Virus record (IMG/VR): IMGVR_UViG_3300034156_000107
Source: a virus
Taxonomy: Duplodnaviria; Heunggongvirae; Uroviricota; Caudoviricetes
Direction: 5' to 3' (one strand)
DNA: 18,849 nucleotides
Both the position numbers and the translations under genes were made by a program. The notes under the pieces were generated by a model. It worked only from the letters and a program-made list of their open reading frames with translations, had not been told where the DNA came from and did not search any database. Shown in pieces: positions 12,485-15,705 of this stretch; the first letter of the stretch is position 1; every line of letters starts with the position of its first letter.

Positions 12485-12949
12485 ATGAACCATTATGTTA
12501 TCTCTCAGCATGAGTCCTACGAATACGAAGGCACTAATAGTGTTCCAGTGGCTATTCGTCATTGCGATGAGTTGGATGTGATTGCAGAAGTGGCTATTCT
12601 TAATGCGAATGTGACCACTGCACAGGGTGATTTGGTCAGTCATTATTACACTTATCATGAAGTTCCGTTGAGCGGTTTCGGCACTACGTTTGATCTGCCT
12701 TCCAAAAAGGCTGAATACAATTTTGTGTCCTTGCGTAACAGGATGGAATTTGACATTGAGCGTGCTCATGTGTTTTATAATCATGGAAAAGAAAACATCT
12801 TCTGTAGTCGCCATGACACCTTTAAAGCCTACTTTTTGGAAGATCATCGTTGCCGTGAGCGGGCGGTTGGAATTCCATATGAACAAGTGGAAGCGATGTT
12901 TGATGAAGTGTTTTCGGCTTATGTCAAACGGGGTATTCGTCTCGTATAA
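12485..12949 (+). CDS. Hypothetical protein, about 154 aa
   Basis: AGGTG RBS before ATG 12485; the listed start at 12419 overlaps the previous gene. Confidence 0.8.
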   Translation: MNHYVISQHESYEYEGTNSVPVAIRHCDELDVIAEVAILNANVTTAQGDLVSHYYTYHEVPLSGFGTTFDLPSKKAEYNFVSLRNRMEFDIERAHVFYNHGKENIFCSRHDTFKAYFLEDHRCRERAVGIPYEQVEAMFDEVFSAYVKRGIRLV

Positions 12950-13446: not shown

Positions 13447-13965
13447 ATGACCACTAAACGCACATTGCTGATCAATATGTTTGACGGCGAGCATCACCAT
13501 CCTTATATGTATAAAACGGGTTTTGATTTTCTTCGCCAATGTTCCGATGTTGAAATTATTCAGCACCTGCACAGTCATTTGGCAAAAGTAGATTTGAGCA
13601 GTTACACCGATCATGGAGCAAAATCTTATCTTCAAATGCTCTATGTTATCTTTAAAGACATTGAAGAGTCGCTTTTCCTTGCCAAAGAAAATGACATTAC
13701 TCACCTTAAATCGGTGTTTGTTCAATATTTTAAAAAGACAGGTGAGTTTGATGATGAACATATCAAACATGTGTTTAATGCAGACCTTGAAAAGATGGCT
13801 GCAACTGCCAATAAAGCTTTGAACATGAAGGATCAGCCATACAAAATTGTTCTGGATAAAGTCTTGGAATCCATTGACGAAATTAATGGTTGCTTTGTTC
13901 TCGACAATCGACCTGTTGTGGCCCTTGAACAACTCTTTATTGATCGAATCAACGCCGTCTCGTAA
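13447..13965 (+). CDS. Hypothetical helical protein, 172 aa
   Basis: AGGA RBS, long ORF. Confidence 0.82.
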   Translation: MTTKRTLLINMFDGEHHHPYMYKTGFDFLRQCSDVEIIQHLHSHLAKVDLSSYTDHGAKSYLQMLYVIFKDIEESLFLAKENDITHLKSVFVQYFKKTGEFDDEHIKHVFNADLEKMAATANKALNMKDQPYKIVLDKVLESIDEINGCFVLDNRPVVALEQLFIDRINAVS

Positions 13966-13983
13966 AAAAAATACAAAAAAGTG

Positions 13984-14012
13984 TTGACGTTGTAGGTGAA
14001 AGTCGCTATAAT
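13984..14012 (+). promoter_or_regulatory. Strong sigma70-type promoter with A-tract UP element (stable-RNA-like)
   Basis: AAAAAAATACAAAAAA upstream; TTGACG-17-TATAAT. Confidence 0.9.
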
Positions 14013-14131
14013 AATCGTCATCAAGAAGGGAAACACATTCTTGATTTTCGTTAAAAAGATGTGGATTATTTTAAGTTCCTCATAATCTGTATCGAGGGCG
14101 TGAAAGCAATTTTACGCTTCGTCTGTTCCAC

Positions 14132-14204
14132 AGAGGTGTATATCAGTTGGTAGATAGTCTCCCTCGCAGGGAGAAGGTCGCGGGTTCAAGTCCCGTCACT
14201 GATG
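14132..14204 (+). tRNA. Non-canonical tRNA-like element, CGC in anticodon position (nominally Ala); mismatched acceptor stem, no CCA
   Basis: D arm TATC/GATA with AGTTGGTA loop; AC arm TCTCC/GGAGA with loop CTCGCAG; variable AGGTC; T arm GCGGG-TTCAAGT-CCCGT; acceptor AGAGGTG/CACTGAT with 2 mismatches. Confidence 0.7.
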
Positions 14205-14232
14205 TGGATTTAGGCCGAGAGGTCAGGACAAA

Positions 14233-14306
14233 TACGGTGTATATCAGCGACCTAGATAATCTCTCTAATCGAGAGAAGGACGTAGGTTCAAATCCTACCA
14301 CTGTAT
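14233..14306 (+). tRNA. Non-canonical tRNA-like element, AAT in anticodon position (nominally Ile), C37, no CCA
   Basis: Acceptor TACGGTG/CACTGTA; D arm TATC/GATA; AC arm TCTCT/AGAGA with loop CTAATCG; T arm GTAGG-TTCAAAT-CCTAC. Confidence 0.7.
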
Positions 14307-14316
14307 TGCAAGAACC

Positions 14317-14345
14317 AAAAAGACTTCTTCGGAAGTCTTTTTTTT
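14317..14345 (+). terminator. Intrinsic terminator closing the tRNA-like unit
   Basis: AAAAAGACTTC-ttcg-GAAGTCTTTTTTTT. Confidence 0.93.
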
Positions 14346-14419
14346 GCTTAAAAGATCGTTGTTGGTAAGGATTACATGACTTTTTAAAAAGCAAACATCG
14401 GTGAGGCGTCACTTCATTG

Positions 14420-14448
14420 TTGTCTTCTATGCTATAATTTGCTATAAT
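14420..14448 (+). promoter_or_regulatory. sigma70-type promoter with duplicated extended -10
   Basis: TTGTCT-17-TATAAT; TGCTATAAT occurs twice, 10 bp apart. Confidence 0.75.
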
Positions 14449-14475
14449 CGGGACTTAAATAAACGAATGAGATAG

Positions 14476-15063
14476 ATGATGAGCCAATCGTTAACTTATT
14501 TTATGCATGACATGCTTAATGTTGACCGGGATCAATCCATTCAAGTGATTGGTCAGCTTGCACCTATTGATTTGGCTCAAATGACTGACTACTTTCCAGA
14601 GTGTGAAGCGATTGGTTGGGATTTCACTGAACGCATGAAAAACGTTGGTGTATCAAAAGCTGCTGGTATTGATGTTGATATTTTCGCCAGTGAGGATTTT
14701 TTGTCGTTCAATGTCGATGAAGACTGTCCAGCGTTTGAAAATTTCTTGAATGAACACTATCCAGTGCTAGCAGATGTCAGCAGCACTTACATGTTTTGTG
14801 CCGCTTCTTACGCTCAGATGCATGATGATTCCAATTTATCTTCTCGTGGGCAGTTGATGTTCATTGTCAGTAACCTGTCGAAGCATTCGTTTATTTCGAT
14901 TGATGTGGATGGTGTAAAGCACGAAGTCATTCCAGAAGCCGGGGATATTTTGTTTATGGACATTGCTTGCAGACATGCTCTGTTTCCAAAACAAGTTGAT
15001 GTCAACAACCTAGATAGTATTCAACCGCTTAAAATGGCAATGATTTCAATCAATGGTTTCTAA
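14476..15063 (+). CDS. Candidate 2OG-Fe(II) dioxygenase/cupin (DSBH) fold protein, 195 aa
   Basis: H-x-D (MHDD) plus distal His (CRHAL) preceded by GDILFMD, a typical DSBH strand; fold inferred from motifs only. Confidence 0.55.
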   Translation: MMSQSLTYFMHDMLNVDRDQSIQVIGQLAPIDLAQMTDYFPECEAIGWDFTERMKNVGVSKAAGIDVDIFASEDFLSFNVDEDCPAFENFLNEHYPVLADVSSTYMFCAASYAQMHDDSNLSSRGQLMFIVSNLSKHSFISIDVDGVKHEVIPEAGDILFMDIACRHALFPKQVDVNNLDSIQPLKMAMISINGF

Positions 15064-15333: not shown

Positions 15334-15705
15334 ATGGATCTCGACTTCATCGTTAGCCATATTGAAAAAACGCTGACAGATGATTTGTTGAAGCCTGTCT
15401 ATCGTAAGATGACGGACAGGCATTTGACCACTGGTCATTGCTATGCCGCTTCCGAGGCTGCTTTTCACTTGCTTGGTGGTGGTCAATACTGGATGTCGTG
15501 TTGTGGGCGTGATGAGTCTGGTGGCACTCATTGGTGGCTGAAAAACAAAGCTTCTGGTGAAATTCTTGATGTGACTTCTTCTCAATTCACTCACTTCGGC
15601 AATATCCCACCTTATGCCAATGGCCGTCCTGTTGGCTTTCTAACCAAACTCCCCAGCAAACGAGCTGTTGTTATCATTGAACGTCTAAAATCATTGAAAA
15701 ACTAG
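15334..15705 (+). CDS. Candidate transglutaminase/papain-like Cys-His-Asp enzyme (YunG-like pattern), 123 aa
   Basis: GHCYAASEA (Cys), GTHWWL (His), EILDVTSSQF (Asp); GAGG RBS in the end of the upstream gene. Confidence 0.65.
   Translation: MDLDFIVSHIEKTLTDDLLKPVYRKMTDRHLTTGHCYAASEAAFHLLGGGQYWMSCCGRDESGGTHWWLKNKASGEILDVTSSQFTHFGNIPPYANGRPVGFLTKLPSKRAVVIIERLKSLKN

Follow-up and report, generated by a model that had tools for sequence, protein, structure and literature searches.

An 18,849-nucleotide (nt) stretch of viral DNA (IMG/VR record IMGVR_UViG_3300034156_000107, Caudoviricetes; the whole stretch is called the window here) contains two neighboring tRNA-shaped sequences of irregular form, which raises the question of whether they supply tRNAs for decoding or have been turned to another use. 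We find that both belong to a single transcription unit (window positions 13984-14350, + strand) with a transcript of about 330 nt between promoter and terminator, no credible reading frame, and two tRNA-shaped domains that are probably non-decoding. The locus is real and strongly conserved, and it represents an uncatalogued RNA family, without an Rfam entry, of giant phage-like genomes that falls within the known theme of tRNA-like non-coding RNAs (ncRNAs). The evidence points to a structured RNA family that reuses the tRNA shape for a non-decoding role and is under much stronger selection than the neighboring proteins. We hold, at roughly even confidence, that it is one structured ncRNA serving as a tRNA mimic in the capacity of decoy or scaffold. 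Annotation pipelines will label the two genes as tRNA-Ala and tRNA-Ile, and such mislabeling would inflate tRNA counts and distort arguments about codon usage and the genetic code.

The transcription unit runs in the order promoter, leader hairpins P1 to P3, cloverleaf 1, a GNRA-capped hairpin, cloverleaf 2 and terminator, all on the + strand. Its sigma-70-type promoter (13984-14012; -35 TTGACG, 17-nt spacer, -10 TATAAT) matches the consensus at 11 of 12 positions and is kept in homologs as TTGAC and TA(T/C)AAT, so placed that transcription would start near 14019. The leader hairpin P1 (14020-14045) is found at the same place in 11 of 11 homologs although its sequences differ. P2 (14058-14093; strands GAUGUGGAUUAU and AUAAUCUGUAUC) has 11 pairs, with 96% of alignment cells paired and five pairs changed on both sides. 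P3 (14096-14119) carries a GNRA tetraloop that is GCAA in the window and GAAA, GUAA or GAGA in homologs; the loop thus stays GNRA throughout four differing sequences, and pair 102:119 of this hairpin is C-G in five versions and U-A in four. A closing stem, P4 (14121-14229), joins GUCU (14121-14124) to GGAC (14226-14229), is altered on both sides to GUUC/GAAC in the homolog L052, and forms a three-way junction holding unit 1 together with the spacer hairpin P5 (14213-14224). The latter reads GGCC-GAGA-GGUC, with 98% of cells paired, one pair changed on both sides, and a loop of GAGA, GAAA or AAAA across homologs.

Within this frame, tRNA-like domain 1 (14132-14204) has intact D and T arms with G18G19 and UUC, an anticodon loop of CUCGCAG (14163-14169), and an acceptor stem containing G2.A71, A3.G70 and G4.U69. 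That stem is prolonged by an extended acceptor helix (14127-14208) in which UCCAC (14127-14131) pairs with GUGGA (14204-14208), that is, positions -1 to -5 with 73 to 77. Domain 2 (14233-14306) has a regular 7-bp acceptor stem plus an A-1:U73 pair and an anticodon loop of CUAAUCG (14265-14271) with A34 and C37, and in the window genome its D loop has lost one G of the GG pair. Both window units share a UAUC/GAUA D stem, G4:U69, a C32-G38 pair and the absence of an encoded CCA, and the tertiary nucleotides U8, A14, G18G19, G15-C48 and the UUC T loop are conserved. The intrinsic terminator (14317-14350) comprises a stem-loop at 14317-14342 with an 11-bp stem and a UUCG loop, followed by a U tract, and is nearly invariant across homologs. 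ARAGORN calls Ala-CGC at 14131-14205 and Ile-AAT at 14232-14307, and the Rfam tRNA model (RF00005; gathering score 29 bits) gives 45.8 bits for unit 1 and 45.6 bits for unit 2, the second score coming from a search of the unit alone, as speed filters dropped unit 2 in larger searches. The predicted folding energy of the 330-nt transcript is -105.1 kcal/mol (z = -4.1 versus shuffles). An initial annotation, made from the letters alone, had described a promoter and terminator bracketing three leader hairpins and two cloverleaves with the nucleotide peculiarities listed above, including the GCAA and GAGA caps, and all of these are in the sequence. Its leader/trailer extension of unit 1 stood in part: CCAC/GTGG is confirmed by covariation, but the proposed GTCTG/TAGGC pairing is not, as GUCU pairs with GGAC and TAGGC lies within the hairpin at 14213-14224.

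Homologs were identified by pattern and by neighborhood. An exact-pattern scan of metagenome contigs gave two true loci: L001, on a contig of 678 kb, and L002, midway along one of 1.86 Mb. A scan of viral contigs with four patterns gave one true record, L040, an IMG/VR genome of 290 kb (G001) that is classed as a provirus and is 96% complete by CheckV. The other 46 viral-contig matches were ordinary tRNA genes or chance, and the sole genome-contig match (L003) was a chance occurrence inside a Lachnospiraceae gene. More contigs were reached via homologs of a 195-aa protein encoded downstream of the RNA, and eight of them carry the RNA upstream. The resulting alignment holds 11 distinct versions, drawn from metagenome contigs and one IMG/VR record. 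Synteny links the window with L001 and L002 (protein identity 45-88%); L040 is distant (proteins ~30% identical), yet its locus is built in the same order, from promoter through hairpins, unit 1, a hairpin and unit 2 to terminator. GenBank phages contained no relative of the RNA or of the downstream 195-aa protein, and viral contigs scanned with that protein gave no match. The L002 locus lies at 857-872 kb of its 1,859,102-bp contig, which contains the pattern once and is therefore not a simple concatemer. To our knowledge, the L001 and L002 contigs exceed every described phage genome in size. Since these contigs are oversized and G001 gave no match to three capsid or terminase Pfam families, the label 'giant phage' for this lineage is provisional.

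In the 11 versions, 917 of 963 pair cells (95%) in both cloverleaves and the extra helices are standard, and 24 pairs are changed on both sides, versus 2-5 in controls whose 3' partners were slid by 1-3 columns. RNAalifold independently predicts P2, P3, P4, the acceptor extension and P5. Among the ten close homologs, identity to the window is 90-96% in the core (P4 to the end of unit 2), compared with 61-89% for the leader and 65-84% DNA identity for the adjacent gene (92% in L059, the closest homolog). Between L002 and L062, one of 187 core positions differs, against 27% of the adjacent gene's third codon positions. Conservation of the core relative to its neighbors identifies the tRNA-like core as the part under selection. 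A 73-aa reading frame at 14147-14368 was considered and rejected as protein-coding, given 1-nt indels in L001, L065 and L052 and substitutions that are compensatory in helices; the frame looks conserved because the underlying DNA is.

The departures from working tRNAs affect the acceptor end and the anticodon arm. At the acceptor end of unit 1, the extension is kept in L040 by two-sided changes (CCCAU/AUGGG), with pair -1:73 switching from C-G to U-A; the unit 1 discriminator therefore covaries with the leader, which marks it as selected for pairing and not for identity. Positions 2:71 and 3:70 are G.A/A.G in seven genomes, A.A/A.G in three and paired in one, L052, where the tandem mismatch is replaced by U-A and U.G, and position 4:69 is U.U in three genomes. 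An elongator tRNA is expected to have seven standard acceptor pairs; unit 2 has them and unit 1 lacks them in 10 of 11 genomes. Instead of a free discriminator followed by CCA, positions 73-77 of unit 1 are paired with the leader, and CCA is encoded in neither unit. Within G001, where 37 Rfam tRNA matches were found, the twin units score 40.0 and 38.2 bits and most of the others 50-74 bits (homolog units as a whole range from 37.6 to 54.2 bits), and CCA is encoded in 32 of the 34 other ARAGORN tRNA genes. We found no gene for a CCA-adding enzyme in this genome.

In the anticodon arm, C32-G38 occurs in 21 of 21 intact loops, with U33 present, and closes the loop so that five unpaired nucleotides remain. 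Unit 2 has C37 in 8 of 11 genomes, and the units thus lack the canonical 7-nt loop with a purine at 37 and no Watson-Crick pair between 32 and 38. In L040, 3 nt are missing from the unit 1 loop. The triplet itself changes among close orthologs: in unit 1 it is AAC in eight genomes, AGC in L002 and CGC in the window only, and in unit 2 it is AAU in six and AAC in five. L002 and L062 differ in the core solely at unit 1 nucleotide 35, and nucleotides 34 and 35 account for two of the eight differences that separate the window from L059. In this family the ancestral loop reads CUAACAG, and the window's CGC is a recent change private to its genome. A slipped register giving a CUA anticodon was rejected, as it leaves only a 3-bp stem. 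The initial annotation had taken the pair not for ordinary decoding tRNAs but for tRNA-like parts of a single transcript, possibly of a new ncRNA class, and had named covariation and anticodon variability among homologs as two of the ways to judge this. The 11 homologs support that conclusion through covariation in the extra helices, closure of the unit 1 acceptor end, variation of the anticodon, one truncated loop and a lack of CCA that contrasts with the real tRNA genes of the same phage; the random decay without compensatory changes that it had named as a possible refutation is excluded. Unit 2 might nonetheless be a mistranslating tRNA, one of the options that it had listed, or an unusual decoding tRNA.

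We hypothesize that the RNA consists of two ancient paralogous tRNA-derived domains, each capable of the L shape, set in a conserved scaffold made up of the leader hairpins P1 to P3, a three-way junction and, flanking domain 1, two hairpins with GNRA caps. The parts of a tRNA that are recognized by shape (elbow, T and D arms, anticodon stem) would have been retained, and the needs of decoding given up, with no free NCCA end on domain 1, C32-G38 closing both loops and a triplet free to vary. Charging would then be impossible, at least for domain 1. The molecule would act as a whole by binding factors that read tRNAs, most plausibly host tRNA-targeting nucleases or toxins, or else tRNA-processing or tRNA-modifying enzymes, in a decoy or scaffold role during infection. 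Host tRNA-targeting factors appear the most likely target given the lineage's investment in tRNA conflict, since G001 carries an Rnl1 RNA ligase, suppressor tRNAs and tRNA arrays. A narrower proposal, which we advance tentatively, is that of a new phage ncRNA class in which two mimics held in fixed geometry by the junction and GNRA-capped helices form a bivalent decoy or scaffold for a host tRNA-recognizing factor, such as a multimeric anticodon nuclease or tRNA-directed toxin, and in which the 'anticodon' evolves fast by tracking the specificity of that factor. Giant phages invest heavily in tRNA biology, including tRNA arrays, suppressor tRNAs and RNA ligases. If the RNA does decoy tRNA-targeting host factors or act as a scaffold for them, it would amount to a newly designed kind of RNA-based counter-defence and offer a way into a question that has stood for decades: the purpose of tRNA-like stable RNAs in phages, T4 RNAs C and D among them.

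Contigs from RNA libraries of two studies cover 14050-14248 and 14081-14260 and so span both ends of unit 1, and a 342-nt contig from a third run, probably of DNA, covers 14005-14345. Such contigs cannot prove transcription or transcript ends and thus give only a weak hint that uncut molecules exist; stretches without contig cover in the RNA-library runs are evidence of nothing.

Several observations weigh against a decoy or scaffold. Evidence of expression is confined to the RNA-library contigs just described. The loops do not reproduce the anticodon loop of an ordinary bacterial tRNA, although such copying might be expected of a simple nuclease decoy. Among 10 close copies of unit 1, 8 retain AAC, and the triplet is thus not fully free. 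Moreover, AAC, AAU and AGC exactly complement the commonest Val, Ile and Ala codons of the window (GUU, 135 of 317; AUU, 203 of 350; GCU, 114 of 247), which fits decoding. Unit 2 of L001, L065 and L051 is an almost regular tRNA, at 51-54 bits. Finally, the leader-trailer pairing could serve ordered processing and not a function of the whole molecule.

Some of these same observations form the basis of the main rival, chiefly for unit 2, which we consider unlikely: that one dicistronic precursor yields two phage tRNAs which are unusual but do work. The units would be released by RNase P and RNase Z, the host CCA-adding enzyme would complete them, their A34 anticodons would read the commonest NNU codons (GUU, AUU, GCU), and C32-G38 and C37 would give resistance to host anticodon nucleases. 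Phage tRNAs with anticodon-loop changes have been described, and these altered loops are predicted to evade host nucleases (PMC10264068). Both units lie above the Rfam tRNA gathering score, with unit 2 regular in the three genomes just named; the anticodons complement the window's most used codons; and G001 is without Val and Ala tRNA genes. Decoding is harder to reconcile with the acceptor stem of unit 1, which is conserved in non-Watson-Crick form and whose discriminator is paired with covariation, and with the lack of an encoded CCA where the phage's other tRNA genes have one. Val, Ile and Ala tRNAs carry A73 as discriminator under established identity rules, and the units here have G73 and U73. 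Unit 1 also lacks G3:U70, and in the window its CGC would read the rarest Ala codon (20 of 247). The L040 unit 1 loop is left with 4 to 6 nt, C37 of unit 2 stands beside an all-A/U anticodon, and the anticodon alters while the rest of the body stays constant. No TadA-type deaminase was found in G001, whose sole deaminase is a nucleoside cytidine deaminase.

A second rival, which we consider more doubtful, is that the tRNA-like domains are processing or stability modules. RNase P and RNase Z would cut at unit 2, and perhaps at unit 1, and thereby set the ends of an upstream structured RNA whose leader or junction is the active part. Comparable arrangements are MALAT1-mascRNA and the tRNA-like/miRNA RNAs (TMERs) of MHV68, in which tRNA-shaped, non-aminoacylated modules stand beside other hairpins in one transcript, and T4 stable RNAs C and D. 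The regular acceptor stem of unit 2 immediately 5' of the terminator and the conserved structure of the leader hairpins speak for such a role. It is opposed by the degree of conservation, as the core is far better conserved than the leader, the opposite of what a mere punctuation signal would predict. Two full cloverleaves with conserved anticodon arms exceed what RNase P and RNase Z need, and the helix that closes unit 1 should impede RNase P. The MHV68 and MALAT1 modules are of animal-virus or eukaryotic origin, serve as RNase P/Z processing signals and share no homology with this RNA, in which the tRNA-like parts are the best conserved.

It is very unlikely that the transcript is a Y RNA-like scaffold, with a tRNA-like module linking a Ro60/Rsr-type protein to a nuclease or repair enzyme. 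A weak YrlA match (RF02553; 17 bits, E = 0.99) covers the unit 1 T arm and the unit 2 D arm, and some jumbo phages encode Ro/TROVE proteins with a tRNA-like partner (PMC7824862). The match lies far below the YrlA gathering score of 69 bits, however, and the cross-unit pairing that it implies is ruled out by covariation, which favors pairing within each unit; in L040 the anticodon stems are UCUC/GAGA and CCACU/AGUGG, making cross-unit pairing impossible there. No TROVE gene (PF05731) was found in G001, with its 290 kb and 96% CheckV completeness. YrlA resembles the present RNA as an ncRNA containing a tRNA mimic that is not used in decoding, and differs in that its single tRNA-like module is permuted and lacks an anticodon arm, and in that it has a Ro-binding helix as well.

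Decaying, functionless duplicates of tRNA genes, which the acceptor mismatches, odd loops and missing CCA might suggest, are excluded, since the core is far better conserved than nearby coding DNA, as the L002/L062 comparison also shows, 24 pairs show compensatory changes, promoter and terminator are conserved, and both paralogs have been retained since before the L040 split, with proteins now ~30% identical.

The preferred reading, a non-decoding tRNA mimic, has partial counterparts among known RNAs. When the whole window was searched against Rfam 15, including the YrlA, GOLLD and ROOL families that the initial annotation had named, only tRNA reached its gathering score, and GOLLD, ROOL and other large phage-associated RNAs gave no match at E up to 10 in 13900-14500. 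The Streptococcus sRNA SpF41 (RF02435) matched unit 2 and the terminator at 22.8 bits (cut-off 52), and this match, like those to YrlA, rliA and other families, was rejected as far under its cut-off. ARAGORN found no tmRNA in the window. With canonical tRNA (RF00005) the units share the full cloverleaf and the conserved tertiary nucleotides; they differ in the closed acceptor end and purine-purine mismatches of unit 1, in C37 of unit 2, and, for both, in C32-G38, the missing CCA, the variable anticodon and their embedding in a larger fold. T4 stable RNAs C and D (species 1 and 2 of the T4 tRNA cluster) are likewise phage-encoded and contain tRNA-like parts, and T4 has its own tRNA genes and Rnl1-based tRNA repair. 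The comparison with T4 is by description, not sequence: its RNAs have one partial tRNA-like 3' part inside a tRNA operon, whereas here two complete cloverleaves have a stand-alone promoter and terminator. Burroughs and Aravind (Nucleic Acids Res 2016;44:8525, cited in PMC7824862) reportedly predicted tRNA-like RNAs beside RNA-repair genes. The likeness lies in odd tRNA-like genes in conflict or repair contexts, with Rnl1 present in G001, but no repair gene adjoins the twin RNA in the window, where the neighbors are proteins of unknown function and a 2OG/Fe(II) dioxygenase-fold protein.

A possible origin is hinted at by phage tRNA-Ile(GAU) genes in IMG/VR, which have the same UAUC/GAUA D stem; in L048, one of these genes, the T arm is identical to the unit 2 T arm. 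The twin domains may thus descend from a tRNA-Ile-type gene of a phage, duplicated before the L040 split, although the comparison set is biased by the search pattern and the suggestion is therefore a lead and not a result.

The 195-aa protein is encoded just downstream of the RNA (14476-15063, + strand) with its own promoter. Its structural model (pTM 0.72) matches 2OG/Fe(II) dioxygenases, including bacterial prolyl hydroxylase, and H116-x-D118...H167 is invariant. The homolog in G001 (L101, 125440-125874) immediately follows a tRNA operon whose last gene is an aberrant tRNA-like one with a loop of UAAGACA, bearing A33, A34 and C37. The repeated adjacency of a dioxygenase-fold protein to tRNA-like genes may be chance. 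The tRNA genes of G001 include 10 Leu(UAA), six CAU, four Arg(UCU) and two CUA suppressors, and the genome has further tRNA-like genes with odd loops, including one with a 7-bp stem and 6-nt loop and one with an 8-nt loop (examples from the tRNA and tRNA-like gene set are at 35401-35477, 125975-126050, 179840-179914 and 180849-180923).

Two further protein families (154 aa and about 135 aa) are encoded within ~1.5 kb of the twin RNA, also in the distant G001 (conserved neighbors at 12485-12949, + strand, in the window; 614-1057, - strand, in L040; and 4005-4406 in L001). The 154-aa protein belongs to no Pfam or PHROG family, and its model (pLDDT 77) has no match in the Protein Data Bank (PDB). 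The window opens (3-764, + strand) inside the gene for an M17 leucyl aminopeptidase, of which it encodes the last 253 aa (Pfam E = 2e-93); the enzyme is typical of cells. After it come ~17 kb of small genes without known families. A 123-aa protein at 15334-15705 (+ strand) belongs to PHROG 12251, of unknown function (E = 7e-31), with a weak match to Pfam YunG; at 87-89% identity in L001 and L002, it is the best conserved protein of the neighborhood.
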